Of a DNA stretch of 64,000 bases, positions 664-40,517 are shown one piece after another. The stretch's first letter is position 1, and every line of letters begins with the position of its first letter. The translations under genes were made by a program, and so were the position numbers. The stretch comes from Escherichia coli. Lineage in GTDB: Bacteria > Pseudomonadota > Gammaproteobacteria > Enterobacterales > Enterobacteriaceae. The notes under the pieces were generated by a model. That model was given only the letters and a program-made list of their open reading frames with translations. It had not been told where the DNA came from and made no database searches. The stretch lies in assembly GCF_044647545.1 (NCBI RefSeq), contig NZ_CP172818.1; one strand, written 5' to 3'.

Positions 664-669
664 GTGAAA

Positions 670-2088: not shown

Positions 2089-2402
2089 TTTTTCCTGCCA
2101 GCAGAGAGTAAGACATAGTGAAAAAATACGTGAACAATTCACACAGGTGTCAGGTCGGAAATAGCATAAATATGGATTAAATTGCTGCGACATGTCGTTA
2201 TGTGATGGATATTACAATTTTCAAATTAAGTTGAATAATTGAGATTATTATTAACCAACTAATTTTAAAGCAGATAAAATTCATAAAGTTCATTAATTGA
2301 TAATTGATATGGATTATTTCATAACCATGATATGGATTATGATGATCTACAGGTATAAAAAACCCTGCCATGCGGCAGGGTCATAAAAGTAAGAAGAATG
2401 GA

Positions 2403-3164: not shown

Positions 3165-3193
3165 AACAATACCTTATTCGTTTATGCCCACAA

Positions 3194-4030
3194 CTAGCGC
3201 AAATCTTTAACGGCCACATGGTCCATATCATCAAAGACCTGGTTTTCACCGACCATGCCCCAGATAAAGGTATAAGCTTTGGTTCCGACACCGGAATGGA
3301 TCGACCAGCTCGGGGAGATCACCGCCTGCTCGTTATGCATCACAATATGACGCGTTTCTTGCGGCTGCCCCATCATGTGGAAAACGCAGGCGTCATCATC
3401 CATATTGAAATAGAAATAAACTTCCATCCGGCGCTCGTGGGTGTGACACGGCATGGTGTTCCACAAGTTACCCGGAGCCAGCTCCGTCATCCCCATACTC
3501 AATTGGCAGGTTTCCAGTACATCCGGGACAAAATATTTGTTAATCGTGCGACGGTTACTGGTGAGGTTATCGCCTAACGTGACTGGAGATACTTCGTCCG
3601 GTGTGACTTTTTTGGTGGGATACGTCGTATGCGCAGGTGCGCAATTGTAATAAAACTTCGCCGGAGTAGCGGTATCAATACTGGCAAAGACAACTTCTTT
3701 TGCGCCTTTACCAACATACAGGGCTTCGCGGTGACCGATTTCATAGCATTGACCATCGACGGTAATCGTACCGGCACCGCCAATATTGATAACACCTAAC
3801 TCGCGACGTTCCAGGAAATAGCTTACGCCGAGTTGTTTACCAACTTCCCCGCCAACGGAAACCGTTTTAGTTACCGGCATAATGCCGCCAACAATAATAC
3901 GGTCAATGTGGCTGTAAACCATGGTGTACTCATCGGCGACAAATACCTTTTCAACTAAAAATTCATTGCGCAGCCCCTGGGTATCCAGCGTTTTTGCATG
4001 CGCACTGTGGATGCTCTGTCTTACGTCCAC
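3194..4030 (-). CDS. kduI: 5-dehydro-4-deoxy-D-glucuronate isomerase
   Basis: 278 aa ORF immediately upstream of kduD on the same strand; sequence recognised as KduI (cupin fold). Confidence 0.9.
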
Positions 4031-4316
4031 ATCAACCTCCGATAATCAGTGAAGCGTGAAAATAGAAAACGATAGTGAAACACTGTTTCGTTTTCTCTAT
4101 AAGGGGATGATATGCCCACGGGATAGGGTTTTCAATTAAAAATAAAACAATGTTTCATTTTTAAGTTAAGGACTGAAAAAAGTGCAGTGTCGATCACGAA
4201 TATGTCATGAGAATGGAAAAATCAGGGAGCCCTGAAAATGTATGTCGACTCGCCAGCCACCATTATTCAACAGATTGATGACGGCTGATATTTATCGGTA
4301 AGGAGGAAATGCAGAG

Positions 4317-5501: not shown

Positions 5502-5752
5502 AACCTCGCACCAATTAACAGTGCAATAGTAAATGATTGTTAATCACAGTTATCTTAATTGTTTAAAAAAAGTGATTTTTATCACAAAGGAAATACGCCT
5601 GACCAGCGGTCAGAGACATAACTGGCACGTAAGGTTTGCAACCACTAACCCACCAATAGAGAGGTAGAAAGGGCGTTAATCTCCCATACTTAACCTGGTT
5701 TATGGTAAATTGCCCTCCATTTTGTTTAATTTGTAGATGATACGTTCAGATA

Positions 5753-6982
5753 ATGTCTAATATTTGGTCAAAAGAAGAAACTCTGTGGAGTTTCGCGCTC
5801 TACGGCACAGCCGTTGGTGCAGGCACGCTCTTCCTTCCTATTCAGTTAGGTTCGGCAGGGGCTGTGGTCCTGTTTATTACTGCTCTGGTCGCCTGGCCTT
5901 TAACATATTGGCCACATAAAGCCTTATGCCAGTTCATCCTCTCATCAAAAACATCAGCAGGTGAAGGGATAACGGGCGCAGTAACACACTACTATGGCAA
6001 GAAGATTGGTAATCTGATTACCACGCTGTACTTCATCGCCTTTTTTGTCGTCGTGTTGATATATGCAGTGGCAATTACCAACTCACTTACAGAACAGCTG
6101 GCAAAGCATATGGTTATTGATCTTCGCATCCGTATGCTAGTGAGTCTGGGTGTTGTATTAATCCTGAATCTCATTTTTCTGATGGGACGCCATGCCACTA
6201 TTCGGGTAATGGGATTTTTGGTATTCCCATTGATTGCCTATTTCTTATTTCTTTCTATTTACCTGGTCGGTAGTTGGCAACCTGATCTATTAACAACCCA
6301 GGTAGAGTTCAATCAGAATACCCTTCACCAGATATGGATATCGATTCCCGTGATGGTTTTCGCCTTTAGCCATACGCCCATTATTTCTACGTTTGCCATA
6401 GACAGACGTGAAAAATATGGCGAACATGCTATGGATAAATGCAAAAAAATTATGAAAGTCGCTTATCTCATCATCTGCATAAGTGTACTGTTCTTTGTCT
6501 TTAGCTGCCTGCTTTCTATTCCACCTTCGTATATTGAAGCGGCTAAAGAAGAAGGGGTTACCATTTTATCGGCGCTTTCTATGCTGCCGAACGCCCCAGC
6601 ATGGTTGTCAATTTCCGGGATTATTGTCGCAGTAGTTGCGATGTCGAAATCATTCCTGGGTACGTACTTTGGCGTTATTGAAGGTGCCACGGAGGTCGTC
6701 AAAACAACACTACAGCAGGTTGGTGTAAAGAAAAGTCGTGCATTTAACCGCGCACTATCAATTATGTTGGTATCGCTCATTACCTTCATTGTTTGTTGCA
6801 TTAACCCGAACGCGATTTCGATGATTTACGCGATCAGCGGCCCGCTCATTGCCATGATACTTTTCATCATGCCTACGCTGTCAACATATCTCATCCCGGC
6901 GCTTAAACCCTGGCGTTCCATCGGAAATCTGATTACGCTGATCGTGGGTATCCTGTGCGTATCGGTAATGTTCTTTAGCTAA
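5753..6982 (+). CDS. yqeG: Putative hydroxy/aromatic amino acid permease (HAAAP family, SdaC/TdcC-like)
   Basis: 409 aa highly hydrophobic multi-TM ORF; matches YqeG. Confidence 0.88.
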   Translation: MSNIWSKEETLWSFALYGTAVGAGTLFLPIQLGSAGAVVLFITALVAWPLTYWPHKALCQFILSSKTSAGEGITGAVTHYYGKKIGNLITTLYFIAFFVVVLIYAVAITNSLTEQLAKHMVIDLRIRMLVSLGVVLILNLIFLMGRHATIRVMGFLVFPLIAYFLFLSIYLVGSWQPDLLTTQVEFNQNTLHQIWISIPVMVFAFSHTPIISTFAIDRREKYGEHAMDKCKKIMKVAYLIICISVLFFVFSCLLSIPPSYIEAAKEEGVTILSALSMLPNAPAWLSISGIIVAVVAMSKSFLGTYFGVIEGATEVVKTTLQQVGVKKSRAFNRALSIMLVSLITFIVCCINPNAISMIYAISGPLIAMILFIMPTLSTYLIPALKPWRSIGNLITLIVGILCVSVMFFS

Positions 6983-6992
6983 TATCCGTTGT

Positions 6993-7036
6993 GAATGGTT
7001 CAAAATTGCAAAAATTTTGAACCATTCCAGTTTTCA
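6993..7036 (+). terminator. Rho-independent terminator after yqeG
   Basis: Near-perfect inverted repeat gaatggttcaaaatt / aattttgaaccattc separated by gcaaa, followed by cagttttcat T-run. Confidence 0.7.
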
Positions 7037-7441
7037 TAATGTTCATTTGTTATTATTCCGCTCTATCACTTCTCTCGTCATATCCTAGTATTATCAGTTA
7101 GTTAAACAAACAAAGAGATCTGAACATCTTAAATAAGACTATTTAAGATGCATAACTTAGATTCGCAAGATATCTTCTGGTCATTCAAAAACAATTTGCG
7201 ATATAGATATTCTTATACCATGAGATAGTTATCTGGACCGCTCTCAACCATGCAAGATTAAATCAGTGAAACATAATCATATTTGATAACGAGAAATGCA
7301 TTTTTAAATGCCTTACTCAGAATTATAGCAAATACAGATTAATCGCAATTTTTCCCGGCAAAATTACAAAATCATGGTGTATTGACATCATCAATAACCA
7401 ATGAAATTATGCAATTATATACGGATAGGGAGGTTCTTAAC

Positions 7442-8074
7442 ATGGGGCTTTGTAGTCGTTATAAAAGTCTTACATGCAATAGTTGCTCAATGCATTGCCA
7501 AATAATGCCAGAAGAGTCACCGCGTTTGCAGTATTGCGCAAACTCGTGTTTTTGTATGTGGCCCGAAGAAAGTTCATATTTTAATCGTGGTGTGGTGGAA
7601 GGTATCTTAACAAAAAACCACAATGCGAGATTAAGCGGATATATTTTTGTCGATTTTTCAGTAAGCTTTTTACGTCTATTCCTTGAAAAAGACTGGATTG
7701 ACTATCTTGCAAGTACTGACATGGGGATTGTTTTAGTCAGCGACCGAAATATGCAATCGTTAGCTAACTACTGGCGAAAACACAACTCTGCAATATCTGC
7801 TGTCATATATAATGATGATGGTCTTGATGTTGCCAATGAAAAGATCAGACAACTATTTATTGGTCGTTATTTATCATTTACCAGAGGGAACACATTAACT
7901 CAGATGGAATTCACCATAATGGGATATATGGTTTCTGGTTATAATCCATATCAGATTGCTGAAGTTCTGGATATGGATATCCGTAGCATCTACGCGTACA
8001 AGCAACGAATCGAAAAGAGAATGGGTGGTAAAATCAACGAGTTATTTATTCGTTCACATTCGGTCCAACATTGA
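7442..8074 (+). CDS. yqeH: LuxR-family HTH transcriptional regulator (ETT2 island)
   Basis: ORF 7382..8074 begins with TTG; the better start is ATG at 7442, preceded by a GGGAGG Shine-Dalgarno. C-terminal LuxR-type HTH (TQMEFTIMGYMVSGYNPYQIAEVLDMDIRSIYAYKQRIEKRMG). AT-rich codon usage. Confidence 0.8.
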   Translation: MGLCSRYKSLTCNSCSMHCQIMPEESPRLQYCANSCFCMWPEESSYFNRGVVEGILTKNHNARLSGYIFVDFSVSFLRLFLEKDWIDYLASTDMGIVLVSDRNMQSLANYWRKHNSAISAVIYNDDGLDVANEKIRQLFIGRYLSFTRGNTLTQMEFTIMGYMVSGYNPYQIAEVLDMDIRSIYAYKQRIEKRMGGKINELFIRSHSVQH

Positions 8075-8407
8075 TACTCAACAATCTGCCAGAATCATAC
8101 TCTGCTTATACGGGCATCTATTGAAATGCCCGTATTTTACAAATAAGCAGTAACCCCAAGAGTAAATAACATGGTATTTAAAACCATCATACGAAAAATT
8201 CAGAAGCATTACGAAATATGAATTTACAAACAATAGTGGCATAAATGTTAATCATGTTAATTTACGTAAAGTTTTACGTTGCGACATTAAAGCGTCATTT
8301 CAATCATTATGATAAATATAAAATTAATATATATTTATGTCGTAAATACCAATATACTTAGCAAACTATGTGATTTCCATTTCGATTGATTTAGTGTCTA
8401 TTGACGT

Positions 8408-9217
8408 ATGTACTGGATTATTAACGATAATATCGAGTTCTGGCCTGAGCACCGAAAATTAATATCGGTACATAACGCCGATCTTAACGTCGTTCTGACA
8501 ACGCCAGCCAGTCGTTGTTTATCACTTCTACTTGAAGCTTTTCCTGATGTGGTTGCACAACAAGATTTTTTCACCAGAGTCTGGGAAGAAGAAGGTATGC
8601 GTGTGCCAACTAACACGTTATATCAGAACATATCCATTATCAGACGCGGATTTCGCGCTGTTGGTGATACCACCCACTCGCTTATTGCAACCGTGCCGAG
8701 AAGAGGATTCAAGATTCATAATGACATTAACATACAAAATCATGCAATAAACTCTTCAACAGACGCACATACACACAATGCCCCACCTGCCGTAAAAGGT
8801 AATGCGGGGTACAAAGAGAGCATTGGTGGCGCAAACAATTTCAATAACAAAATCCTCAAACATATAAAAAGTTATCTAATTATGTTGAGCATATTTGCTA
8901 TAGGCGTATATTCTGCACATTGGCTATGGAATAATAATCAACCGAAGCCATTCTTCAAGGATTACAAGACTGTTGCGGAAATTAATGGCTGCCATTTTAA
9001 TGTGACAGAAGATACAATTGATGGGTTGAAAGAGTTCGATAAATATAAGACACGGATACTGGATTCGGGGATTAACTGTAAAAAATATCCGTGGTTATAC
9101 TTCCCTCTTGCAAAATCCTCACCAGGGATGATTGTTATGGCATGCAATAAAAACTATAACCAACATGAAGTGGCAGGCTGTTTAACCCTGTCTTACCGTG
9201 AGGCTAATCGTGATTGA
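8408..9217 (+). CDS. yqeI: ToxR/MarT-like membrane-anchored winged-helix (OmpR/PhoB-type) transcriptional regulator
   Basis: 269 aa ORF; N-terminal region resembles a trans_reg_C DNA-binding domain (YQNISIIRRGF...IATVPRRGFKI), followed by one predicted TM helix (IMLSIFAIGVYSAHWLW) and a C-terminal domain. Confidence 0.8.
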   Translation: MYWIINDNIEFWPEHRKLISVHNADLNVVLTTPASRCLSLLLEAFPDVVAQQDFFTRVWEEEGMRVPTNTLYQNISIIRRGFRAVGDTTHSLIATVPRRGFKIHNDINIQNHAINSSTDAHTHNAPPAVKGNAGYKESIGGANNFNNKILKHIKSYLIMLSIFAIGVYSAHWLWNNNQPKPFFKDYKTVAEINGCHFNVTEDTIDGLKEFDKYKTRILDSGINCKKYPWLYFPLAKSSPGMIVMACNKNYNQHEVAGCLTLSYREANRD

Positions 9218-9632
9218 TTATAAAAAAAACTTATTATTTATTTTAGTTTTTATCAGTGGGTTTATTCTCTTCATTGTTTACTCTTATACTGCAGAAAAAA
9301 TGATATATAATGAAACATGCACTGCAAATTGGGTAATTTTTAATGACAAGGGGCGAGCAAATCTTACCATCGACTTTATGTATAACCAAAAAAATAAAAC
9401 AGGAACTGTTGCGTTGAGCGGAACCTGGCAACAAGGTAACAGAGAAAGTAAGTCAATACGGCGAAATATTGAATACACATGGATTGAAAACTATGACACA
9501 GCCCATTTAACATCAAAGAAAGTTAATAAATTTGAGATCATGGATCAAGTCGATGATGATAGACTTGCAGAACTTATTCCTGATTTTTATGTCTTTCCAG
9601 AAAAAAGTGTAAGCTATAATATACTAAAGTAA
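9198..9632 (+). CDS. yqeJ: Small membrane-anchored protein overlapping the 3' end of yqeI (possible ToxS/FidL-like partner)
   Basis: 144 aa ORF from GTG at 9198, overlapping yqeI by 20 nt; N-terminal TM helix (LLFILVFISGFILFIVYSY). Start codon uncertain (alternative ATG downstream). Confidence 0.6.
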   Translation: MRLIVIDYKKNLLFILVFISGFILFIVYSYTAEKMIYNETCTANWVIFNDKGRANLTIDFMYNQKNKTGTVALSGTWQQGNRESKSIRRNIEYTWIENYDTAHLTSKKVNKFEIMDQVDDDRLAELIPDFYVFPEKSVSYNILK

Positions 9633-9840
9633 GGTAAGCATGCTTTTATTTTGAGTATTGGTAACAGAGCAATAATGCATTGTACAAGGTAAACTTAAAT
9701 AGATAACAAAAAGATGGAACCTCGCTAATCATAAAACAATAAAATTAAATATGCTTGTAGTATATGCCAGTATAAAGCATCAAAGTTTTGATCAACATCT
9801 TTCATTTTAGATATCACCTTGCAATGTAAAATATCATGTA

Positions 9841-10266
9841 TCAACAACATCTGGTGCAAATCCATGAGTCGAACTCAACATTCATCTTAGCTCTATTATT
9901 ATTCCTTCGTACAGTCGATGTAAACAATACAGAAAGAGGATTATTAAGAACCAGTTTACTTAGAGAATCAATAGAGGAAAGGACTAACGTTTCTTTAAAA
10001 GAATTGATTTCATCATCTGTTAAACTAAACTCATCATTGACAGATCGTGAGATATAACTGTTTTTAACTTTACTCTTTACGTTGACTTTACTGACAGAAT
10101 TAACATTCACATATCTTGAATTTAGTACCCATGATGTTGTTTGCGTGAGAACCTTCTCAGCATTAAGGAATTTTTTTAACGGAATCCTTGGTTTCTTTTT
10201 CGAGTCCGAATTTACAATATCATGCATATAGACCATTTCATGAATCTGCGAAAACTCAATGTCCAT
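9841..10266 (-). CDS. yqeK: ETT2 island protein of unknown function
   Basis: ORF 9841..10278 begins with GTG; ATG at 10266 (MDIEFSQ...) with a GAGGT SD gives 141 aa; very AT-rich, Asn/Ser/Lys-rich. Confidence 0.65.
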
Positions 10267-10513
10267 TATATACCTCACATTTTTACCGTGACTCGATGTT
10301 ACTGTTCAATAATCACCTTCCATCAATACTAAATTTAATACCCCTAATGTGCCGATAACAAATATAGTCATTCTACGTAACGTCTCCATAAGGTGATAAC
10401 CTTGATCAAATGAATTTCGAAAATAATAAAGGAAATCTTTTAGATTTTTCACAAATAAAGTTATTTATTTACCAATATCATTTCGATTCACACTATTATC
10501 TTTTTTTAAAAAT

Positions 10514-10601
10514 AAAAAAAAAAATAATTATTAAATAAAAAAAAAAAAATAATAAAAAAAAAAAAAAAAAAAAGAAATTTTAAAAAAAAAAAAAAAAAAA
10601 A
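10514..10601. repeat. Cluster of long poly(A) homopolymer tracts (about 12, 13, 20 and 20 nt)
   Basis: Directly read: A-runs at about 10514-10525, 10537-10549, 10554-10573 and 10582-10601 in the yqeK-ygeF intergenic region. Confidence 0.95.
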
Positions 10602-10669
10602 GGTGATATTTGACATTATCAGAAGCTGCGAATTCGGATTTTGCTCTAATCAAATGAGAGAAATGTAAA

Positions 10670-11161
10670 ATGAAGCCACGAAATATTAATAATAGCCTAC
10701 CACTGCAACCATTAGTTCCTGATCAGGAGAACAAAAATAAGAAAAATGAAGAGAAATACGTGAATCCAGTTAAAATTACGATGAGGTCTGGTTTAAATTA
10801 TATTGAACAAGAATCTCTTGAAGGAAAATATCTAACACATGATTTGTCAATAAAGATAGCGGATATTTCTGAAGAAATAATTCAGCAAGCAATATTATCG
10901 GCTATGAGCATATATAAATTTCCGATAACAGATGATTTAATGAGTATGGCTACAAATGAACTCATAAAACTGGCCAAAATAGAGAATAATTTAGACCTGA
11001 ATAAATTCTCTACTATATGTACCGACGTTCTATCCCCCCTCGTCACCAGACATAATAAAGAAAAAAAACCAGACGACTTACTACCCTTCGCAAAAATCCC
11101 TTTTTTAATTTTCATCGAAAAAATGGAAATTGATAATATGAATCCAGGCCATGCACATTAA
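10670..11161 (+). CDS. ygeF: ETT2 island protein of unknown function
   Basis: 163 aa ORF starting just downstream of the poly(A) cluster; AT-rich; corresponds by position to ygeF. Confidence 0.6.
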   Translation: MKPRNINNSLPLQPLVPDQENKNKKNEEKYVNPVKITMRSGLNYIEQESLEGKYLTHDLSIKIADISEEIIQQAILSAMSIYKFPITDDLMSMATNELIKLAKIENNLDLNKFSTICTDVLSPLVTRHNKEKKPDDLLPFAKIPFLIFIEKMEIDNMNPGHAH

Positions 11162-24216: not shown

Positions 24217-25995
24217 TTATGTGTTTAACAACTCATATTTCTTAATCTTGCGATAGAGCGTAGCAATGCCGATGCCCAGTTCATCAGCAACTTCCTTCTT
24301 GCTGTTATGACGTGAAAGCGCCTCGCGGATCATTTGCTTTTCCATCTCCTCCAGCGCCGTGCCGCCCGCATCATCGAGTGACAGGTGCGCCTCACTGACC
24401 TCTGTTACATCACTTTGCTCCGTTGTGCCATTATTCAGCAGATTTGGTGGCAATAGCGTGCTGTCGATAACTTCACCTGAAGGAACCACGTTAACCAGAT
24501 ATTCCATCAAATTGCTTAACTCGCGCAGGTTTCCGGGCCAACGATGCTTACGCAATATTTCGACGACATCCGGAGCAATGCCAGGATAAACCGATCCCAG
24601 ACGACGGGTATGCAGATGTAAAAAGTAATGCACCAGTAATTCAATATCTTCCTGACGTTCACGCAGCGGTGGAAGAGTTATCGGGATAACATTAAGTCGG
24701 TAGAAGAGATCTTCGCGGAATTTACCTTCGGCAATGAACTGGGCCAAATTCTGATTAGTTGCAGAAATGATGCGGATGTCGACTTGTATTGGGCTACTGG
24801 CACCAATCGGCAGAATTTCACGCGCCTCAATAGCGCGCAGTAATTTAGCCTGCAACATTAATGGCATATCACCAATTTCATCGAGAAACAGCGTGCCCGT
24901 ATTCGCCGCCTGAATCAACCCTGTTTTACCGTTGGCAGAAGCGCCAGTAAATGCGCCTTTAACATAACCGAACAGTTCGCTCTCCAGAAGCTGTTCCGGA
25001 ATCGCGGCACAGTTGATAGCAATAAAGGGTTTATTCCGTCTTCCGCTCAACTTATGGATTGCACGGGCGACGACTTCTTTACCTGTGCCGCTTTCACCAA
25101 CCACCATAACGCTGGATGGGCTGGGTGCAATACGGCTAATGAGTCGTTTTAATTGCCGCATAACACGGCACTCGCCAACCAATTGTTCAATATGCGGTTC
25201 ATCAGGTGCATTTGCTACAGAAAAACTGGTATGCGATTGGTGAAACGCCATTAAAAATAGTTGTCGGCCCTGGATGTTATGCAACTGACCAATGATTAAT
25301 TCACTTTTATCATCCCACGAAACAATATGTTGCATATGACCATGGGTAAAATTACTCTCAAATGTTAATGGTCTGAAACGAACAGGTTTTCCAATAATAT
25401 TATTTTGTACAACACCGAGTGTTTTTAAAGCTGTCTGATTAACAAATTGAACACGATTATCAGCATCAACCACTAACACGCCCTGATCCATATTATCGAT
25501 CATGGTCGCGAATATTTTACTGATGTTATCTCCTGGTCCCTGATCCTCCAGAAGTTTAGAAACAAAAATGGTGGATATATGGCGAACGTAATCAGAAAAT
25601 TCGCGTAAATTATCACTAATATGCTCTTGTTGCTCGTGGGTAACGGCAATCAAACTTATCACTCCAACACAACGATCCTGTAAAATGACAGGCGTACCCA
25701 GAAATGCTTTTTCGCGGCAATTTTCTTTACTATCGCAACCTTCACAAAGGGGATCGAAGCGAGACTGTGTCACAACTTTTTCAGTTTTCGTTTCCAGGAC
25801 GTGGCGGAGCAGGCGTGAGTTGCCGCTCAACTGGCGACCAAGAAACTTCCCATACGCGCCCGTTCCGGCGACGCGACACAAGTTTTCATCAACGATCTCA
25901 ACCTCAAGCTGCAAAACGCTGGCAAGCATTCTGGCAAAACGCTGAATTGTCGGTTGAATTTGCATCAATACTGACTGCGTAGTAGCAAGCTCCAT
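24217..25995 (-). CDS. ygeV: Sigma-54-dependent transcriptional activator (sensory N-terminus + AAA+ + Fis-type HTH)
   Basis: 592 aa; Walker A (GESGTGKE), GAFTGA motif (YVKGAFTGASANGKTG) and C-terminal HTH, typical of bacterial enhancer-binding proteins. Confidence 0.9.
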   Translation of the reverse strand: MELATTQSVLMQIQPTIQRFARMLASVLQLEVEIVDENLCRVAGTGAYGKFLGRQLSGNSRLLRHVLETKTEKVVTQSRFDPLCEGCDSKENCREKAFLGTPVILQDRCVGVISLIAVTHEQQEHISDNLREFSDYVRHISTIFVSKLLEDQGPGDNISKIFATMIDNMDQGVLVVDADNRVQFVNQTALKTLGVVQNNIIGKPVRFRPLTFESNFTHGHMQHIVSWDDKSELIIGQLHNIQGRQLFLMAFHQSHTSFSVANAPDEPHIEQLVGECRVMRQLKRLISRIAPSPSSVMVVGESGTGKEVVARAIHKLSGRRNKPFIAINCAAIPEQLLESELFGYVKGAFTGASANGKTGLIQAANTGTLFLDEIGDMPLMLQAKLLRAIEAREILPIGASSPIQVDIRIISATNQNLAQFIAEGKFREDLFYRLNVIPITLPPLRERQEDIELLVHYFLHLHTRRLGSVYPGIAPDVVEILRKHRWPGNLRELSNLMEYLVNVVPSGEVIDSTLLPPNLLNNGTTEQSDVTEVSEAHLSLDDAGGTALEEMEKQMIREALSRHNSKKEVADELGIGIATLYRKIKKYELLNT

Positions 25996-26364
25996 AGCTT
26001 TACCTTCCAGACTTACTTAAAAGTCGATCATTGAAGACGTTGATGGTTCATAGATCATGATGATATTAACTCAGGCGAAATTGGCTTTGATAAAAACATA
26101 AGATTTTTATCACTTTCTAATGAAATTATGGAAGAGATATCACATTTCTATATCAATATGAGAATTACGGCGGTGAGTTTATCAAACTGAAGAGAGATCG
26201 CCTGTCCCTTTATCTTATTTCTGATACTTAGCAGCAAATAAATAACGCGATAAAAAAAGCCAAACGTTTTCGTATTTTACAAACAACCGGAAGCTGGCAT
26301 CAATTTGTGATCAACCCCACACATTATCCGTCAAATTAGTCTTTTGCAGCCCCGTGGATAATTC

Positions 26365-26380
26365 TGGCACACTTATTGTT
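26365..26380 (+). promoter_or_regulatory. Candidate sigma-54 (-24/-12) promoter upstream of ygeW
   Basis: TGGCAC-acttA-TTGTT resembles TGGCAC-N5-TTGCA with one mismatch at the -12 GC; about 90 nt upstream of ygeW and divergent from ygeV. Confidence 0.25.
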
Positions 26381-26470
26381 AGTCCCAGGTATAGCTGTGA
26401 AAACACCAATCACTTTGGCAAGTCACAGTGAAATAAACCACTTTGCCTGTCATTCCACTACCGGGACTTT

Positions 26471-27661
26471 ATGATGAAAACTGTTAATGAGCTGATTAAG
26501 GATATCAATTCGCTGACCTCTCACCTTCACGAGAAAGATTTTTTGTTAACGTGGGAACAGACGCCAGATGAACTGAAACAAGTACTGGACGTTGCCGCAG
26601 CATTAAAAGCACTGCGTGCTGAAAACATCTCAACCAAAGTCTTTAATAGTGGATTAGGTATTTCCGTATTCCGCGACAACTCCACCCGTACCCGCTTCTC
26701 TTATGCTTCCGCGCTTAACCTGCTCGGCCTTGCACAGCAAGATCTCGACGAAGGCAAATCACAAATCGCTCACGGCGAAACCGTGCGTGAAACCGCCAAT
26801 ATGATCTCCTTCTGCGCCGACGCTATTGGTATTCGCGACGATATGTATCTGGGCGCAGGCAACGCCTATATGCGTGAAGTTGGCGCTGCACTTGATGACG
26901 GTTACAAGCAGGGTGTGCTGCCGCAACGTCCGGCTTTAGTGAACCTGCAATGCGATATTGACCACCCGACTCAGTCAATGGCTGACCTGGCATGGTTACG
27001 TGAACACTTTGGTTCACTGGAAAACCTGAAAGGTAAAAAAATCGCCATGACCTGGGCCTACTCCCCAAGCTATGGCAAACCGCTCTCTGTACCACAAGGC
27101 ATCATCGGTCTGATGACTCGCTTCGGTATGGATGTCACCCTGGCCCATCCGGAAGGCTACGACCTGATCCCGGATGTCGTTGAAGTCGCTAAAAACAATG
27201 CTAAAGCCTCCGGCGGTAGCTTCCGTCAGGTCACCAGCATGGAAGAAGCCTTCAAAGACGCAGACATCGTTTATCCGAAGTCATGGGCACCTTACAAAGT
27301 GATGGAAGAGCGTACTGAATTGCTGCGTGCGAACGATCACGAAGGCTTAAAAGCACTGGAAAAACAGTGTCTGGCACAGAACGCGCAACACAAAGACTGG
27401 CATTGTACTGAAGAGATGATGGAACTGACCCGTGATGGCGAAGCCCTGTACATGCACTGCCTGCCAGCTGATATCAGCGGTGTATCCTGCAAAGAAGGTG
27501 AAGTGACTGAAGGCGTATTCGAAAAATACCGTATCGCTACCTACAAAGAAGCCAGCTGGAAGCCTTATATCATCGCCGCGATGATCCTGTCCCGTAAATA
27601 CGCCAAACCAGGTGCACTGCTCGAGCAACTGCTGAAAGAAGCGCAAGAACGCGTGAAATAA
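26471..27661 (+). CDS. ygeW: Carbamoyltransferase of the ATCase/OTCase superfamily, substrate unknown
   Basis: 396 aa; transcarbamylase carbamoyl-phosphate-binding motif STRTR and HCLP motif present; matches YgeW. Confidence 0.88.
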   Translation: MMKTVNELIKDINSLTSHLHEKDFLLTWEQTPDELKQVLDVAAALKALRAENISTKVFNSGLGISVFRDNSTRTRFSYASALNLLGLAQQDLDEGKSQIAHGETVRETANMISFCADAIGIRDDMYLGAGNAYMREVGAALDDGYKQGVLPQRPALVNLQCDIDHPTQSMADLAWLREHFGSLENLKGKKIAMTWAYSPSYGKPLSVPQGIIGLMTRFGMDVTLAHPEGYDLIPDVVEVAKNNAKASGGSFRQVTSMEEAFKDADIVYPKSWAPYKVMEERTELLRANDHEGLKALEKQCLAQNAQHKDWHCTEEMMELTRDGEALYMHCLPADISGVSCKEGEVTEGVFEKYRIATYKEASWKPYIIAAMILSRKYAKPGALLEQLLKEAQERVK

Positions 27662-27718
27662 CCCCTCGGGCCGATCAGCTGGTCGGCCCTCTATTTCCAG
27701 AGGCCAAAAGGATAGGAT

Positions 27719-28915
27719 ATGTCCGTTTTCTCATTGAAGATTGATATCGCCGATAACAAATTTTTCAACGGCGAAACATCACCGCTCTTTTCGCAAAGCC
27801 AGGCCAAACTGGCGCGCCAGTTCCACCAGAAAATTGCTGGTTATCGCCCAACACCGCTTTGTGCGCTGGACGATCTCGCAAACCTTTTTGGTGTGAAGAA
27901 AATTCTCGTCAAAGACGAATCAAAACGATTCGGTCTGAACGCCTTCAAAATGCTCGGCGGTGCGTACGCCATCGCTCAATTATTGTGTGAAAAATATCAT
28001 CTTGATATCGAAACGCTGTCATTTGAGCATCTGAAAAATGCCATCGGCGAAAAAATGACCTTCGCGACCACCACCGACGGCAACCACGGGCGCGGTGTGG
28101 CATGGGCAGCACAGCAACTCGGACAGAATGCGGTGATTTACATGCCGAAAGGTTCTGCTCAGGAACGCGTTGACGCCATTCTGAACCTCGGTGCCGAGTG
28201 CATCGTCACGGATATGAACTATGACGATACCGTTCGCCTGACCATGCAACACGCGCAGCAGCACGGCTGGGAAGTGGTACAGGATACAGCATGGGAAGGT
28301 TACACCAAAATCCCAACCTGGATCATGCAAGGCTACGCAACCCTGGCAGATGAAGCCGTCGAGCAAATGCGTGAAATGGGCGTAACCCCGACGCACGTTC
28401 TGCTGCAAGCCGGTGTCGGTGCAATGGCCGGTGGTGTGCTGGGTTATCTGGTCGACGTCTATAGCCCGCAAAATCTGCACAGCATTATTGTTGAACCTGA
28501 CAAAGCTGACTGTATTTATCGCTCCGGCGTCAAAGGCGACATCGTCAACGTTGGCGGTGATATGGCCACCATCATGGCGGGCCTGGCCTGTGGCGAACCT
28601 AACCCGCTGGGCTGGGAAATCCTACGTAACTGCGCCACCCAATTCATCTCCTGCCAGGACAGCGTTGCCGCATTAGGTATGCGCGTGCTGGGTAATCCGT
28701 ACGGCAACGACCCGCGCATCATCTCCGGTGAATCCGGCGCTGTCGGTTTGGGCGTTCTCGCGGCGGTTCATTATCACCCGCAACGTCAAAGCCTGATGGA
28801 AAAACTGGCGCTGAACAAAGATGCCGTAGTGCTGGTTATCAGCACTGAAGGCGACACAGACGTGAAGCACTACCGCGAAGTTGTCTGGGAAGGCAAACAC
28901 GCTGTAGCACCTTAA
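27719..28915 (+). CDS. ygeX: Diaminopropionate ammonia-lyase (PLP-dependent, fold type II)
   Basis: 398 aa; recognised as YgeX/DpaL. Confidence 0.88.
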   Translation: MSVFSLKIDIADNKFFNGETSPLFSQSQAKLARQFHQKIAGYRPTPLCALDDLANLFGVKKILVKDESKRFGLNAFKMLGGAYAIAQLLCEKYHLDIETLSFEHLKNAIGEKMTFATTTDGNHGRGVAWAAQQLGQNAVIYMPKGSAQERVDAILNLGAECIVTDMNYDDTVRLTMQHAQQHGWEVVQDTAWEGYTKIPTWIMQGYATLADEAVEQMREMGVTPTHVLLQAGVGAMAGGVLGYLVDVYSPQNLHSIIVEPDKADCIYRSGVKGDIVNVGGDMATIMAGLACGEPNPLGWEILRNCATQFISCQDSVAALGMRVLGNPYGNDPRIISGESGAVGLGVLAAVHYHPQRQSLMEKLALNKDAVVLVISTEGDTDVKHYREVVWEGKHAVAP

Positions 28916-28972
28916 TCACCCTATTGGAACTGCTCCCTGCAAAACGGGGAGTAAAAAATCTGGAGAAAAATA

Positions 28973-30184
28973 ATGGCTAAGAATATTCCATTCAAACTGA
29001 TTCTTGAAAAAGCAAAAGATTACCAGGCGGACATGACTCGCTTCCTGCGCGACATGGTTGCTATTCCCAGTGAAAGCTGCGACGAAAAACGCGTAGTACA
29101 TCGTATTAAAGAAGAGATGGAAAAAGTCGGCTTCGATAAAGTTGAAATCGACCCGATGGGCAACGTTCTCGGTTATATCGGCCACGGCCCGCGTCTGGTG
29201 GCAATGGACGCTCATATCGATACCGTCGGTATTGGCAACATCAAAAACTGGGACTTCGATCCGTACGAAGGCATGGAAACTGATGAGCTGATCGGTGGTC
29301 GCGGTACTTCCGACCAGGAAGGCGGCATGGCATCTATGGTTTATGCCGGTAAAATCATTAAAGACCTCGGTCTGGAAGATGAATATACCCTGCTGGTTAC
29401 CGGTACTGTGCAGGAAGAAGACTGCGACGGCCTGTGCTGGCAGTACATTATTGAACAATCCGGCATTCGCCCGGAATTTGTGGTCAGTACCGAACCAACC
29501 GACTGCCAGGTATACCGTGGTCAGCGCGGTCGTATGGAAATTCGTATTGATGTTCAGGGTGTTAGCTGCCACGGTTCTGCACCAGAACGCGGTGACAACG
29601 CCATTTTCAAAATGGGTCCGATTCTTGGCGAATTACAAGAACTCTCCCAACGTCTGGGTTATGACGAATTCCTCGGCAAAGGCACCCTCACCGTTTCTGA
29701 AATCTTCTTCACATCCCCAAGCCGTTGCGCTGTAGCAGATAGCTGCGCCGTCTCTATTGACCGCCGTCTGACCTGGGGCGAAACCTGGGAAGGCGCGCTG
29801 GACGAAATCCGCGCCCTGCCTGCAGTACAGAAAGCTAACGCGGTTGTTTCTATGTACAACTACGACCGTCCGTCCTGGACTGGCCTGGTTTACCCAACCG
29901 AATGCTACTTCCCGACCTGGAAAGTGGAAGAAGATCACTTCACCGTTAAAGCACTGGTGAATGCCTACGAAGGGCTGTTTGGCAAAGCGCCGGTTGTTGA
30001 TAAGTGGACCTTCTCAACTAACGGCGTATCTATCATGGGCCGTCACGGCATTCCGGTGATCGGCTTTGGCCCGGGTAAAGAACCTGAAGCGCATGCACCT
30101 AACGAAAAAACCTGGAAATCTCACCTGGTGACCTGTGCCGCGATGTACGCTGCAATCCCGTTAAGCTGGCTGGCAACCGAATAA
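28973..30184 (+). CDS. ygeY: M20 family peptidase/amidohydrolase (ArgE/DapE/ACY1-like)
   Basis: 403 aa; matches YgeY. Confidence 0.88.
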
Positions 30185-30236
30185 TTACTCTTCACTTATT
30201 CCCCTCCGGTTCGCCGGAGGGTTTTTGGAGTTTGCT

Positions 30237-31622
30237 ATGCGCGTATTGATCAAAAACGGCACTGTCGTTAACGCAGATGGACAAGCCAAACAGGATTTGC
30301 TGATTGAAAGCGGGATTGTTCGCCAGTTGGGCAACAATATTTCGCCGCAGCTCCCGTATGAAGAAATTGATGCCACTGGCTGTTACGTTTTCCCTGGCGG
30401 CGTGGATGTCCATACGCATTTCAATATTGATGTCGGCATCGCGCGCAGTTGTGATGATTTTTTTACCGGTACCCGCGCAGCTGCGTGTGGCGGTACAACA
30501 ACCATTATTGACCATATGGGATTTGGCCCGAATGGCTGCCGGTTACGCCATCAACTGGAGGTTTATCGTGGTTATGCCGCCCATAAGGCGGTCATCGACT
30601 ACAGCTTTCACGGTGTGATCCAGCACATTAATCACGCCATCCTCGACGAAATCCCGATGATGGTCGAGGAAGGGCTGAGCAGTTTTAAACTCTATTTAAC
30701 CTATCAATACAAACTCAACGATGATGAAGTGTTGCAGGCATTACGCCGCTTGCATGAATCCGGCGCGCTGACCACCGTGCACCCGGAAAATGACGCAGCT
30801 ATCGCCAGCAAGCGGGCGGAGTTTATCGCCGCAGGGTTAACCGCGCCGCGTTATCATGCCTTGAGTCGACCTCTGGAATGCGAAGCGGAAGCCATCGCCC
30901 GCATGATTAACCTGGCACAAATTGCCGGTAACGCCCCGCTCTATATCGTGCACCTGTCTAACGGCTTAGGTCTGGATTATCTGCGTCTTGCCCGTGCGAA
31001 TCACCAGCCAGTCTGGGTTGAAACCTGCCCACAATATCTCCTGTTGGACGAACGCAGTTACGATACAGAAGATGGCATGAAGTTCATTCTTAGCCCACCG
31101 CTGCGTAACGTACGCGAGCAGGACAAACTGTGGTGTGGCATCAGCGATGGTGCGATTGACGTGGTAGCGACCGATCACTGCACGTTCTCAATGGCTCAAC
31201 GCCTGCAAATTTCTAAAGGCGATTTCAGTCGTTGCCCAAATGGCTTACCCGGTGTGGAAAACCGCATGCAACTGCTGTTCTCCAGTGGCGTGATGACGGG
31301 ACGTATCTCACCGGAGCGTTTTGTTGAATTAACCAGCGCGATGCCCGCCAGGCTGTTTGGCCTGTGGCCGCAAAAAGGATTATTAGCGCCCGGTTCCGAT
31401 GGCGACGTGGTGATTATCGACCCACGCCAGAGCCAACAAATTCAGCATCGCCATCTCCACGACAACGCTGACTATTCGCCATGGGAGGGTTTTACCTGTC
31501 AGGGCGCGATTGTCAGAACCTTATCCCGTGGTGAAACGATTTTCTGTGACGGCACCTTTACAGGCAAAGCCGGGCGAGGTCGTTTCCTGCGACGCAAACC
31601 GTTTGTCCCTCCCGTGCTCTAA
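30237..31622 (+). CDS. hyuA: D-phenylhydantoinase / dihydropyrimidinase-family cyclic amidohydrolase
   Basis: ORF 30225..31622; start MRVLIKNGTVVNADG at 30237; metal-binding HTH motif (GGVDVHTHF). Confidence 0.88.
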   Translation: MRVLIKNGTVVNADGQAKQDLLIESGIVRQLGNNISPQLPYEEIDATGCYVFPGGVDVHTHFNIDVGIARSCDDFFTGTRAAACGGTTTIIDHMGFGPNGCRLRHQLEVYRGYAAHKAVIDYSFHGVIQHINHAILDEIPMMVEEGLSSFKLYLTYQYKLNDDEVLQALRRLHESGALTTVHPENDAAIASKRAEFIAAGLTAPRYHALSRPLECEAEAIARMINLAQIAGNAPLYIVHLSNGLGLDYLRLARANHQPVWVETCPQYLLLDERSYDTEDGMKFILSPPLRNVREQDKLWCGISDGAIDVVATDHCTFSMAQRLQISKGDFSRCPNGLPGVENRMQLLFSSGVMTGRISPERFVELTSAMPARLFGLWPQKGLLAPGSDGDVVIIDPRQSQQIQHRHLHDNADYSPWEGFTCQGAIVRTLSRGETIFCDGTFTGKAGRGRFLRRKPFVPPVL

Positions 31623-31669
31623 CCACTGCCAGGGATCTATACACAATCAAGAATGATGAGTGAGGAAAA

Positions 31670-32602
31670 ATGAGTAAGAAAATTGTTCTCGCCCTGGGCG
31701 GGAATGCGCTGGGCGATGACCTGGCCGGGCAAATGAAAGCGGTAAAAATTACTTCTCAGGCAATTGTTGATTTAATTGCCCAGGGACATGAAGTTATCGT
31801 CACTCATGGTAACGGGCCGCAGGTGGGCATGATTAACCAGGCCTTTGAAGCTGCCGCAAAAACTGAAGCGCACTCGCCAATGCTGCCGATGTCTGTCTGT
31901 GTTGCATTAAGCCAGGGTTATATTGGTTACGATCTACAAAACGCTTTAAGAGAAGAACTGCTTTCTCGGGGCATTAATAAACCTGTAGCAACGCTGGTTA
32001 CTCAGGTCGAAGTCGACGCTAACGATCCGGCATTCCTCAACCCGACCAAGCCGATCGGTTCGTTCTTTACCGAGCAAGAAGCAGAGCAACTGACAAAACA
32101 GGGTTACACTCTGAAAGAAGATGCTGGTCGCGGCTATCGTCGTGTTGTTGCTTCACCAAAACCGGTTGATATTATTGAAAAAGAGACGGTAAAAGCGCTG
32201 GTAGAAGCAGGCCAGGTAGTGATCACCGTTGGCGGTGGTGGCATTCCCGTTATTCGTGAAGGTAACCATCTGCGCGGTGCCAGTGCGGTTATCGATAAAG
32301 ACTGGGCCAGCGCCCGTTTAGCAGAAATGATTGATGCCGATATGCTGATCATTCTGACTGCGGTAGAAAAAGTGGCCATTAACTTCGGTAAAGAGAATGA
32401 ACAGTGGCTCGATCGCCTGTCATTAAGTGATGCTGAACGCTTTATCGAAGAAGGTCATTTTGCGAAAGGTTCTATGCTGCCTAAAGTGGAAGCTGCCGCC
32501 TCGTTTGCTCGCTCTCGCGCAGGTCGTGAAGCACTGATTACCGTATTGAGCAAAGCGAAAGAAGGGATTGAAGGCAAAACCGGAACGGTGATTTGTCAGT
32601 AA
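31670..32602 (+). CDS. yqeA: Carbamate kinase-like protein
   Basis: 310 aa; amino acid kinase fold, N-terminal VLALGGNAL motif typical of carbamate kinases. Confidence 0.88.
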   Translation: MSKKIVLALGGNALGDDLAGQMKAVKITSQAIVDLIAQGHEVIVTHGNGPQVGMINQAFEAAAKTEAHSPMLPMSVCVALSQGYIGYDLQNALREELLSRGINKPVATLVTQVEVDANDPAFLNPTKPIGSFFTEQEAEQLTKQGYTLKEDAGRGYRRVVASPKPVDIIEKETVKALVEAGQVVITVGGGGIPVIREGNHLRGASAVIDKDWASARLAEMIDADMLIILTAVEKVAINFGKENEQWLDRLSLSDAERFIEEGHFAKGSMLPKVEAAASFARSRAGREALITVLSKAKEGIEGKTGTVICQ

Positions 32603-32606
32603 TTTA

Positions 32607-32640
32607 GGCCGGATGGGTAATACCATCCGGCCATTTTCAT
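32607..32640 (+). terminator. Rho-independent terminator after yqeA (between convergent yqeA and yqeB)
   Basis: ggccggatgg-gtaata-ccatccggcc hairpin followed by attttcattt. Confidence 0.65.
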
Positions 32641-34313: not shown

Positions 34314-35084
34314 CTAATTCACAAATCTGCGCGCGATTGCAGGATGTTCTTGTATATCGCCCAGCCAGATTGCCTCTACGTTGTGTTGTTGCAGCGGTTG
34401 AAGGAGCTCGCTTTGCGCAATCGCATTCTCACATTGAGAAAAACGGTTAATGAACCAGACTCGCCGACAACCTTGCGGTACGTTTTTAAACGCCCCCTGA
34501 GGGTGGCGAACCAGCGCAACGAGATCGCTCAGTTGCAAGGGTGCATCAGGTGTTAACCCAGTAATATCAGCAAACTGCGACCAGCGATGGACATTTTCTG
34601 TGCTCACTTTCGCACCCAAAATATGTCCTCCCATCACAGCAATCACGCAGCAACTGCTTTTAGGTATGCAAGGTTCGTGCTCATCAGGCGCTTTTAACGG
34701 CATTCCACGCGAGCCATCTGCTTCAATGAGAATTACGTCACACTCTGGTCGTTGTACCAGTGCATCAATCGCTTCTGGCGTAAATCCCTGCACTTTTCCC
34801 TGATTCGCTTTCCAGCTGTGAAAACAAAATGAAATGGGGGATATAAAAGACGCATGAGGAAGCATGGCGGGATCACGACAGAAAACCACGGGCCAGTGAG
34901 ATGTTGGCATAAACATATGTGTCGTCGTAGTGATTAATACACGCCTGCCGCTCGCCTGGAACAGTTCTGCCAGCCAAAAAAGCAAGCTGGTTTTCCCCCC
35001 AGCACCAACAACAGAAATCACAGTGGGACGTTTCTGCGCGCCTAAATCAATGAATAATGCCGATGGGTCAATTATACTTTTCAC
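34314..35084 (-). CDS. yqeC: Selenium-dependent hydroxylase accessory protein, predicted P-loop NTPase
   Basis: 256 aa; Walker A-like VVGAGGKTS near N-terminus; matches YqeC. Confidence 0.85.
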   Translation of the reverse strand: MKSIIDPSALFIDLGAQKRPTVISVVGAGGKTSLLFWLAELFQASGRRVLITTTTHMFMPTSHWPVVFCRDPAMLPHASFISPISFCFHSWKANQGKVQGFTPEAIDALVQRPECDVILIEADGSRGMPLKAPDEHEPCIPKSSCCVIAVMGGHILGAKVSTENVHRWSQFADITGLTPDAPLQLSDLVALVRHPQGAFKNVPQGCRRVWFINRFSQCENAIAQSELLQPLQQHNVEAIWLGDIQEHPAIARRFVN

Positions 35085-35766: not shown

Positions 35767-36087
35767 AAAACGTAGTTAAACGATTGCGTTCAAATATTTA
35801 ACCCCTCCTGTACTCTTTATCATAATGATAAGGAATCACTGATTTTGAGAAAAGAGAAAAAGTGATAAATGGGCTGGCAATAATAATTTTCAGGAGTGAT
35901 TTTAATTCTCATTTGGCACCTGTGAGTTCATTCACAAAAAGCCATTAAGTTTCGAGCCGCCTCACATTTTTTTATATTTCCCGCCAAACCTGGCAAGAGT
36001 GGTGCGATTGTTGCTCTATCCCCCTAAACCACCGGATTTCTCAACACCGGTCACTCAATGATATCTGTATAAGCTAAGGAGAGGGTT

Positions 36088-39188: not shown

Positions 39189-40517
39189 ATGTTGATTCTG
39201 AAGAATGTCACCGCAGTGCAGTTACACCCGGCGAAAGTGCAGGAAGGCGTTGATATCGCCATCGAAAATGATGTGATTGTCGCTATCGGCGATGCCCTGA
39301 CGCAACGCTACCCCGATGCCAGCTACAAAGAGATGCATGGTCGGATTGTGATGCCGGGAATTGTCTGCTCGCATAACCATTTTTACTCGGGACTTTCCCG
39401 CGGAATTATGGCAAATATCGCCCCCTGCCCGGATTTCATCTCAACGCTGAAAAATCTCTGGTGGCGGCTCGATCGCGCCCTTGATGAAGAGTCGCTCTAT
39501 TACAGCGGACTGATTTGTTCCCTGGAAGCGATTAAGAGCGGATGTACATCGGTTATCGATCACCATGCCTCTCCAGCCTATATCGGCGGGTCACTCTCCA
39601 CATTGCGCGACGCATTTTTAAAAGTTGGCCTGCGCGCGATGACCTGTTTTGAAACTACTGACCGTAACAGCGGCATCAAAGAGTTGCAGGAAGGTGTAGA
39701 AGAAAACATCCGCTTCGCCCGTCAGATTGATGAGGCGAAGAAAGCAGCAACCGAGCCGTATCTGGTGGAAGCACATATCGGCGCTCACGCGCCGTTTACC
39801 GTGCCGGATGCCGGTCTGGAGATGCTGCGTGAAGCCGTGAAAACCACAGGTCGTGGTTTGCATATTCACGCTGCGGAAGACCTTTACGACGTTTCCTACA
39901 GTCACCACTGGTACGGCAAAGACCTACTGGCACGACTGACGCAATTCGATCTCATCGACAGCAAAACGCTGGTCGCTCATGGGCTGTACTTGTCGAAAGA
40001 TGACATCACCCTACTCAATCAGCGCGATGCGTTCCTGGTGCATAACGCCCGTTCAAACATGAACAACCATGTCGGCTACAACCATCACCTTAGCGACATC
40101 CGCAATCTGGCGTTGGGAACGGACGGCATTGGTTCGGACATGTTTGAAGAGATGAAATTTGCCTTCTTTAAACATCGCGATGCGGGTGGCCCGCTGTGGC
40201 CTGACAGTTTTGCCAAAGCACTGGCTAACGGCAACGAACTGATGAGCCGCAACTTTGGCGCGAAATTTGGGCTTCTGGAAGCCGGTTACAAAGCCGATTT
40301 AACCATTTGCGATTACAACTCGCCGACGCCGCTGCTGGCAGACAATATCGCCGGGCATATCGCTTTCGGTATGGGCTCAGGCAGCGTTCACAGCGTGATG
40401 GTCAATGGTGTGATGGTCTATGAAGACCGTCAGTTTAACTTCGATTGCGATTCCATTTATGCGCAAGCCAGAAAAGCCGCTGCCAGTATGTGGCGTCGGA
40501 TGGATGCGCTGGCATAA
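39189..40517 (+). CDS. ssnA: Amidohydrolase-superfamily protein (chlorohydrolase/aminohydrolase-like)
   Basis: 442 aa; HxH metal motif (CSHNHF); begins 3 nt after ygfK stop. Confidence 0.88.
   Translation: MLILKNVTAVQLHPAKVQEGVDIAIENDVIVAIGDALTQRYPDASYKEMHGRIVMPGIVCSHNHFYSGLSRGIMANIAPCPDFISTLKNLWWRLDRALDEESLYYSGLICSLEAIKSGCTSVIDHHASPAYIGGSLSTLRDAFLKVGLRAMTCFETTDRNSGIKELQEGVEENIRFARQIDEAKKAATEPYLVEAHIGAHAPFTVPDAGLEMLREAVKTTGRGLHIHAAEDLYDVSYSHHWYGKDLLARLTQFDLIDSKTLVAHGLYLSKDDITLLNQRDAFLVHNARSNMNNHVGYNHHLSDIRNLALGTDGIGSDMFEEMKFAFFKHRDAGGPLWPDSFAKALANGNELMSRNFGAKFGLLEAGYKADLTICDYNSPTPLLADNIAGHIAFGMGSGSVHSVMVNGVMVYEDRQFNFDCDSIYAQARKAAASMWRRMDALA

Follow-up and report, generated by a model that had tools for sequence, protein, structure and literature searches.

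A conserved -24/-12 element and candidate YgeV enhancer sites upstream of the ygeW operon of Escherichia coli

Introduction

The closest described analogue of the locus studied here is prpR/prpBCDE of Escherichia coli and Salmonella, where the gene of an enhancer-binding protein (EBP) and a catabolic operon under a sigma-54 promoter are transcribed away from each other. The same arrangement is found for ygeV, an EBP gene, and ygeW with the genes behind it in a 64,000-nucleotide stretch of the E. coli contig NZ_CP172818.1 (the window). Our subject is the spacer between ygeV and ygeW, with a -24/-12 element at 26364-26380 before ygeW. The inducer of prp is a metabolite of the pathway and not its substrate, which we count as a likeness to the ygeV system. 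PrpR senses 2-methylcitrate through a PrpR_N domain and depends on IHF, whereas YgeV has a GAF-like region and a PAS domain, and the ygeV/ygeW spacer is without an IHF consensus. The CRP-like site of ygeW is held at 59.5 bp from the promoter centre, and the candidate YgeV regulon has four promoters against one for PrpR. A passage in a review (PMC5566544, citing Lee et al. 2005) attributes the catabolite repression of prp to CRP in the shared spacer.

Other EBPs share individual traits with YgeV. FhlA, the activator of hyc, hyp, fdhF and hydN, is a GAF-containing EBP without a receiver domain and serves, as proposed for YgeV, several sigma-54 promoters of an anaerobic cluster in response to a small-metabolite signal. 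Its N-terminus is much longer than that of YgeV, and its upstream activating sequence (UAS) was reported to be of the TGT-N10-12-ACA type, unlike the dyad described below; the FhlA equivalog model scored YgeV at 259 bits, with a cut-off of 830. DhaR of E. coli has a GAF followed by a PAS domain as in YgeV, and the NCBIfam DhaR model aligns to residues 97-589 of YgeV. DhaR acts at a sigma-70 promoter, has no functional GAFTGA motif and senses via DhaK and DhaL. The GAFTGA of YgeV is intact, and its three invariant cysteines had no visible counterpart when it was aligned with DhaR. DioR, a sigma-54 EBP in Clostridiales, was predicted to control homologues of ygeW-ygfK-ssnA-ygeY, dpaL, yqeB/yqeC and xdhC (Nie et al. 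2019, PMC6615313). The same pathway genes are the predicted targets of DioR and of YgeV, in a different phylum. The N-terminus of YgeV and a fragment of a Firmicutes EBP (P0049) are 27-30% identical, with C84, C87 and C93 among the shared residues.

The enzymes of the cluster have been placed in the reductive uric-acid pathway, in which YgeW carries out phosphorolysis of the 2-ureido group and the route to pyruvate is completed by YgeY and YgeX (PMC12507026 and preprint). A quotation in Liu et al. of Iwadate & Kato 2019 has ygeV as required for urate consumption. A 'YgeV iModulon' covering this cluster was defined, and ygfT expression was reported to be lowered in a ygeV mutant (Lamoureux et al. 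2023). YgeV is absent from current lists of characterised E. coli EBPs.

The sigma-54 promoter of ygeW is already known. It was predicted at b2870 (Francke et al. 2011) and reportedly earlier, since a citation in Lamoureux et al. 2023 credits Reitzer & Schneider 2001 with sigma-54 promoters before xdhABC and ygeWXY. Sigma-54 binding has been published. The ygeV/ygeW system is of a textbook kind, this instance of it is in print, and control of ygeW by YgeV is a supported inference. New relative to the literature searched, and suggested by the sequence, are conserved candidate activator dyads and a CRP-like site at a fixed distance. We consider it highly probable that 26364-26380 is the sigma-54 promoter of the ygeW-yqeA operon, which encodes the last steps of anaerobic reductive urate breakdown, and that YgeV fires this promoter together with CRP.

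Results

The -24/-12 element is the 17-mer CTGGCACACTTATTGTT on the plus strand (26364-26380). It contains TGGCAC-N5-TTGT at 26365-26379, and 90 nt separate its end from the ygeW ATG at 26471; RefSeq starts the gene at the second ATG, 26474. The spacing is correct for TGGCAC-N5-TTGC and the sole departure is a T for C at -12, by which the element lacks the consensus C of the sigma-54 promoter class. The original prediction had recognised the site, its distance of about 90 nt to ygeW and the single mismatch in the -12 GC, all of which stand; its end point at 26380 takes in one T too many.

The matrix scan for RpoN sites that had been proposed as a check was run with a sigma-54 matrix trained on 38 published intergenic sites, the four of this cluster left out. 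The ygeW element was the top match in the window on either strand, with 15.96 bits compared to a training median of 16.6. By chance, about 0.57 matches of this quality are expected per 64 kb on both strands. The pattern TGGCACNNNNNTTGY occurs a single time in the window; of 100 shuffled sequences, 42 contained it at least once. The bare motif match is therefore not significant. According to our arithmetic, the chance expectation falls to roughly 0.002 for a match with this position and orientation inside the 475-bp spacer.

Published experiments agree with the scan. Sigma-54 was located in vivo in K-12 by chromatin immunoprecipitation sequencing (ChIP-seq) at site OS30, which is exactly this 17-mer, with a fold-above-threshold (FAT) score of 3 and a predicted start 80 nt before ygeW (Bonocora 2015, Table 1). 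With the convention of that study, 19 bp past the motif centre, the predicted transcription start is at 26391 on the plus strand, which gives an 80-nt leader. In vitro, genomic SELEX (gSELEX) with the RpoN holoenzyme yielded a peak in the ygeV/ygeW spacer (Shimada 2021). We judge the element to be real because it is the top matrix match, has the right orientation in the 475-bp spacer, is conserved in 57 species and coincides with published sigma-54 occupancy.

The T at -12 has natural parallels. The pspA (TTGGCACGCAAATTGTA) and pspG (TTGGCATGATTCTTGTA) promoters are E. coli sigma-54 promoters with TTGT at -12, as at ygeW. Since these promoters are functional with the GT variant, it is compatible with function and the assignment of the ygeW element to the class stands. 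The psp promoters differ from ygeW in their activator PspF, which has no sensor domain, and in a higher ChIP occupancy (FAT 21 and 15). The second-best matrix match in the window was CTGGCACGACTGACGCA inside ssnA (39927-39943, plus strand, 14.3 bits), which is not a published high-stringency ChIP-seq site. A second TGGCA in the spacer (26294-26298, CTGGCATCAATTTGTG) was rejected as a promoter: its spacing is wrong, and it is missing in Citrobacter.

The comparative analysis used one genome per species, scanned with the YgeV N-terminus, and yielded 77 loci; a protein search with the N-terminus gave mostly fragments, so genome loci were used. The divergent orientation of ygeV and ygeW, as originally predicted, is shared by 57 species, ranging from Escherichia to Morganella, Edwardsiella and Hafnia. 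In all 57 spacers, the best sigma-54 match was the homologous element YTGGCAYNNTTATTGTT, located 69-111 nt before ygeW and, in a single species, 208 nt before it. An alignment of 58 sequences shows poor conservation over most of the spacer, while the columns of TGGCA and TTATTGTTA are at least 95% conserved. The base at -12 is T in about 54 species, A in three and C in none of the 57. The apparent mismatch is therefore a maintained feature. The conservation of the TTATTGTTA block (the region of 26376-26380 in orthologous spacers) at 95% or more exceeds what sigma-54 recognition alone seems to need.

Within the species, the ygeV/ygeW region (2.8 kb tested) was found in 5,283 of 5,426 complete E. 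coli genomes, and it is 100% identical to that of FDAARGOS_497. Even the most divergent E. coli genomes keep all spacer elements intact, as do Escherichia sp. E1V33 and Citrobacter amalonaticus, and the DNA between the elements diverges.

The ygeV gene (= isrR, 24217-25995, minus strand) is an open reading frame of 592 codons for a sigma-54 EBP. Walker A and GAFTGA motifs had led to this identification, and the domain searches bear it out. Pfam found Sigma54_activat (PF00158) at residues 272-439 with 237 bits (cut-off 20.2, E 1e-70), an AAA lid and, as the Fis-type helix-turn-helix (HTH) of an EBP, HTH_8 at 548-587 with 49.8 bits. The motifs are GESGTGKE (Walker A, 300-307), GAFTGA (347-352) and DEIG (372-375). 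A PAS match at residues 162-205 was above the Pfam threshold, and a GAF match in the first ~150 residues was sub-threshold (19.6 vs 22.4 bits). The layout is GAF-like (~1-150), PAS (~160-250), AAA+ (272-439) and HTH_8 (548-587). With AAA+, HTH and an N-terminal sensor region, YgeV has all sequence hallmarks of a bacterial EBP.

The N-terminal region was modelled by AlphaFold (AF2) from 29 orthologues with a pLDDT of 74. Foldseek identified the N-terminal GAF-PAS of DhaR as the best PDB match of the model (4lrx_C, E 3.5e-9), and further GAF domains matched too. On the strength of profile and model, the GAF-like and PAS region is plausible as an effector sensor. YgeV was renamed IsrR and termed an orphan response regulator (mBio 2022). 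This label misfits the protein because the N-terminus is GAF-like plus PAS, and neither Pfam nor NCBIfam gave a Response_reg match for a receiver (REC) domain.

The GAF-like domain contains cysteines in the pattern C84-x2-C87-x5-C93 (window ~25669-25746, minus strand, including C109). All 29 N-terminal sequences compared carry these three, that of the Firmicutes EBP with 27% identity included, and nearly all have C109. In this domain of an anaerobic-pathway regulator, they may form a metal or iron-sulphur (Fe-S) site. The HTH LGIGIATLYRKIKKY is invariant, bar one I-to-V change, in nearly all of ~75 orthologues, down to 57% overall identity. Across the same species, YgeW is much better conserved than YgeV, with 87-100% compared to 57-96% identity to the E. 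coli proteins.

Upstream of the ygeW promoter, the spacer contains two dyads that are candidate UAS for YgeV. Dyad 1 is at 26151-26163 (TATCAATATGAGA; 26151-26164, TATCAATATGAGAA), with its centre at -234 from the predicted start. The weaker dyad 2 is at 26180-26192 (TATCAAACTGAAG; 26180-26193, TATCAAACTGAAGA), 29 bp from dyad 1 and centred at -205. The form is TATCA-N3-TGA(T/G)A, with half-sites that do not vary over 58 spacers. In 51 distinct orthologous sequences, T0, T2, C3, A4, T8, G9, A10 and A12 are invariant, A1 is present in 49 of the 51, either G or T occupies position 11, and the three bases in the centre vary. Many species have the perfect palindrome TATCAnnnTGATA. For dyad 2, the TTTATCA...TG columns are conserved, and in about 22 spacers the main dyad is followed, 28-31 bp further downstream, by a dyad with two mismatches. 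A general repeat search of the spacer gave weak pairs only and missed the dyads.

The dyad recurs at the other sigma-54 promoters of the cluster. The exact 12-mer CTCATATTGATA is present in three copies in the 64 kb, each upstream of a sigma-54 site (xdhA, ygeW and ygfT); with one mismatch allowed, there were six matches in the window compared to 0.27 expected. A dyad matrix, trained on ygeW spacers only and then run on the window, had 11 matches of at least 14 bits with 0.7 expected. Its top matches include the ygfT/uacT spacer (24.6 bits), the region upstream of ygfK (22.2 bits) and two sites upstream of xdhA (15.9 and 15.7 bits). The sigma-54 elements belonging to these dyads are the published sites OS29 for xdhA (CTGGCGTAAATCTTGCC, 20443-20459, plus strand), OS31 for ygfK (GTGGTGCGATTGTTGCT, 35999-36015, plus strand) and OS32 for ygfT (TATGCCCATTTATTGCA, 51006-51022, minus strand, with an A here and a G in K-12), which accompany OS30 and IS34, a site inside yqeC (Bonocora 2015). 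The xdhA dyads at 20311-20324 and 20332-20345 are centred at -152 and -131 from the predicted start. The ygfK dyad at 35817-35831 is a perfect palindrome (TTATCATAATGATAA, centre -202), and the dyad of the ygfT/uacT spacer at 51188-51201 is identical to dyad 1 of ygeW (TATCAATATGAGAA, centre -199 from the predicted ygfT start). The dyads of all four promoters fall in the range of ~80-250 bp upstream of a sigma-54 promoter that is expected of an EBP's UAS. A dyad-like sequence of 17.3 bits is also located inside yqeC (TCTCAATGTGAGAA, 34426-34439, minus strand), ~160 nt upstream of the yqeB start and 223 nt downstream of IS34 (34667-34683, minus strand).

Four Aeromonas species have ygeW downstream of ygeV, with both genes pointing the same way. 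There, too, ygeW is preceded by TTGGCA(C/T)GCTTATTGAT and by a dyad, perfect or nearly so, at about -242; the module of dyad and sigma-54 element is therefore part of the ygeW promoter, not of the ygeV promoter. The distances between dyad and promoter form groups (195, 205, 214-219 and 226-229 bp) that differ by roughly a helical turn, unlike the variable promoter-to-ATG distance (78-120 nt) and the distance from the ygeV ATG to the dyad (mostly 129-281 nt). With R = 0.56-0.70 over 12 distinct distances, the helical phasing is suggestive only.

From its conservation and its recurrence, the dyad TATCA-N3-TGA(T/G)A is probably the YgeV enhancer. It could be the operator of another factor instead, either Fur-like or a purine or anaerobic regulator, with YgeV binding elsewhere, for instance at the repeat at 26089-26113. 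For such a factor speak the GATA/TATC cores of the AT-rich dyad, which recall Fur hexamers, and the partly conserved repeats closer to ygeV. We regard this as unlikely. The dyad stays with the sigma-54 element even where ygeV is re-oriented, it is found at -130 to -235 before all four sigma-54 promoters, and its distance shifts in steps of about one helical turn. Its invariant half-sites parallel the invariant HTH of YgeV. This agreement is consistent with YgeV binding and does not discriminate between the hypotheses: co-variation of HTH and dyad tells nothing here, as Aeromonas loci with no dyad within 4 kb have the same invariant HTH. The repeat at 26089-26113 is a perfect 9-7-9 inverted repeat, TGATAAAAA-CATAAGA-TTTTTATCA, ~95-120 nt from the ygeV start codon and partly conserved. 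It may be part of the ygeV promoter or serve autoregulation.

Between the dyads and the promoter, a predicted CRP-like site, TGTGA-TCAACC-CCACA, is located at 26306-26321. Its centre at 26313.5 corresponds to -77.5 from the predicted start. It matches TGTGA-N6-TCACA at 9 of 10 positions; the half-sites are conserved and the N6 is variable. In 55 of 58 spacers, the site is 58.5-60.5 bp from the centre of the sigma-54 motif (-77.5 to -79.5). With CRP at a fixed distance, the ygeW operon would be open to glucose repression, and a 'native Crp-binding site' in the ygeV/ygeW spacer was replaced to escape glucose repression (PMC12507026). The IHF consensus WATCAANNNNTTR had no match in the spacer.

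The CRP-like site could also serve a CRP-dependent sigma-70 promoter in the same spacer that transcribes ygeW, with the sigma-54 site poised or non-productive. Many sigma-54 binding sites may never fire (Bonocora 2015); the low occupancy (FAT 3) and the non-consensus -12 would suit such a site. The CRP-like site is well conserved, glucose repression has been reported, and TATTGT at 26373-26378, read as a -10 hexamer, would bring CRP near -71.5, a class I position. This reading is nevertheless improbable. The sigma-70 scan of the spacer gave two weak matches, a count not above shuffled sequences; the only plus-strand match overlaps the start codon, which leaves no plus-strand promoter between the CRP-like site and the leader. 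TATTGT has no acceptable -35 element at 16-18 bp upstream, and there are no conserved sigma-70 hexamers. A sigma-70 promoter does not need the TGGCA that is invariant in 57 species, and the module of dyad and sigma-54 element recurs at three other promoters and in the rearranged Aeromonas loci. The minus-strand match (-35 at 26303-26298, -10 at 26279-26274) adjoins the CRP-like site, is poorly conserved and could be the ygeV promoter.

One clade has a further element, a PUR-box-like palindrome (AGCCAAACGTTTTCGT, 26258-26273, centre -125.5). In 18 species its centre is kept at -125.5 or -126.5, and in almost every one of them xdhC adjoins ygeV; it is not present in Klebsiella, Raoultella, Hafnia, Edwardsiella and Morganella. 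A PurR-type operator is possible from the sequence; a computational study of 2015 included ygeW in the predicted extended PurR regulon (PMC4576408). Palindromes related to AGCCAAACGTTTTCGT are also located upstream of ygfK (35774-35789) and in the ygfT/uacT spacer (51348-51363). A riboswitch or attenuator in the 80-nt leader of ygeW was rejected, as the leader folds no better than shuffled sequences (z = -0.63). The Rfam scan of the window detected tRNA-Gly only.

The operon downstream of the promoter, ygeW-ygeX(dpaL)-ygeY-hyuA-yqeA(arcC), covers 26471-32602 on the plus strand with gaps of 40-57 nt and encodes the downstream half of the reductive uric-acid pathway. It probably ends at a terminator-like GC-rich hairpin with a T run after yqeA (32607-32632). 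The RefSeq order of the cluster is xdhABC, ygeV on the opposite strand, ygeW, dpaL, ygeY, hyuA, arcC, yqeB, yqeC, mocA, ygfK, ssnA, ygfM, xdhD, xanQ, guaD, ghxQ, ygfS, ygfT and uacT. The urate transporter gene uacT (51397-52835) is a frameshifted pseudogene according to the RefSeq annotation of an identical strain. Positions 1-17000 of the window hold the ETT2 type III secretion island with frameshifted and partial genes, followed by tRNA-Gly at 19195-19268.

Discussion

The elements of the spacer suggest a mechanism for the activation of ygeW. Sigma-54 polymerase on the 17-mer would form a closed complex that is unable to start alone. A YgeV oligomer may bind the dyads at about -234 and -205, reach the promoter via DNA looping and open the complex with ATP. 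CRP-cAMP at -77.5 would provide the bend that IHF gives at many sigma-54 promoters. The signal is probably urate or an intermediate of the pathway, read by the GAF/PAS region of YgeV. The T at -12, probably kept by selection, would weaken the promoter and make its output strictly dependent on both activators. With the dyad also in front of the xdhABC, ygfK-ssnA-ygfM-xdhD and ygfT promoters, a single regulator would switch on the whole purine and urate cluster.

Several observations weigh against a YgeV-fired sigma-54 promoter at ygeW. In vivo, the FAT score of 3 compares with 11 at xdhA and 26 at ygfK (Bonocora 2015), and the caution of that study about sites that never fire applies to OS30; the -12 element is non-consensus. 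Activity of the YgeV iModulon is rare, and the trigger published for it, ethanol in knockouts of baeR or cpxR, has no obvious link to purines. The UAS at -234 is far upstream in comparison to -130 to -200 at the sister promoters. The AT-rich dyad bears a loose likeness to Fur-box hexamers, and in the ETT2 island, which is also AT-rich, similar sequences reach moderate scores. The orthologous sequences are phylogenetically related, and their counts overstate the independent support. The literature searched contained neither YgeV binding data for the dyad nor ygeW transcription data from rpoN, ygeV or crp mutants, nor a mapped 5' start. For this reason, the link from YgeV to the ygeW promoter itself is inferred. 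The original prediction that ygeV controls the operon is carried by the EBP hallmarks, the sigma-54 occupancy, the conserved element and gene pairing, and the reports on ygeV mutants.

The consensus of NtrC sites is TGCACC-N5-GGTGCA. A genuine sigma-54 promoter fired by a different EBP, such as NtrC under nitrogen limitation, with YgeV regulating other genes such as virulence genes, is very improbable. In its favour, E. coli possesses roughly a dozen further EBPs, xdhB/xdhC contains an NtrC gSELEX peak, and YgeV/IsrR was linked to indole and to LEE (locus of enterocyte effacement) expression without mention of ygeW (mBio 2022), but ygeV adjoins ygeW in more than 55 species, a single dyad unlike the NtrC consensus is common to all four promoters of the cluster, and both the YgeV iModulon and the ygeV-mutant reports point to YgeV.

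A more far-reaching reading joins the individual features of the ygeW promoter. TATCA-N3-TGATA would be an undescribed YgeV enhancer of a four-promoter urate regulon, CRP would replace IHF at ygeW in a fixed phase, and the kept T at -12 would enforce dependence on both activators. CxxCx5C, together with C109, could bind a metal or an Fe-S cluster, by which redox or oxygen signals would be integrated with purine signals. As a whole, this combination is possible but remains tentative, and we would sooner doubt it than assume it.

The cluster encodes the reductive uric-acid pathway by which gut bacteria clear urate. Strains against hyperuricaemia have been engineered from it by replacing this very spacer (PMC12507026). 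Our analysis adds a map of the control region at base level, with two dyads, a clade-specific PUR-like box, a CRP-like site and a -24/-12 element whose weak -12 is conserved. As the same dyad marks the promoters of xdhA, ygfK and ygfT, binding and sensing by YgeV become directly testable.

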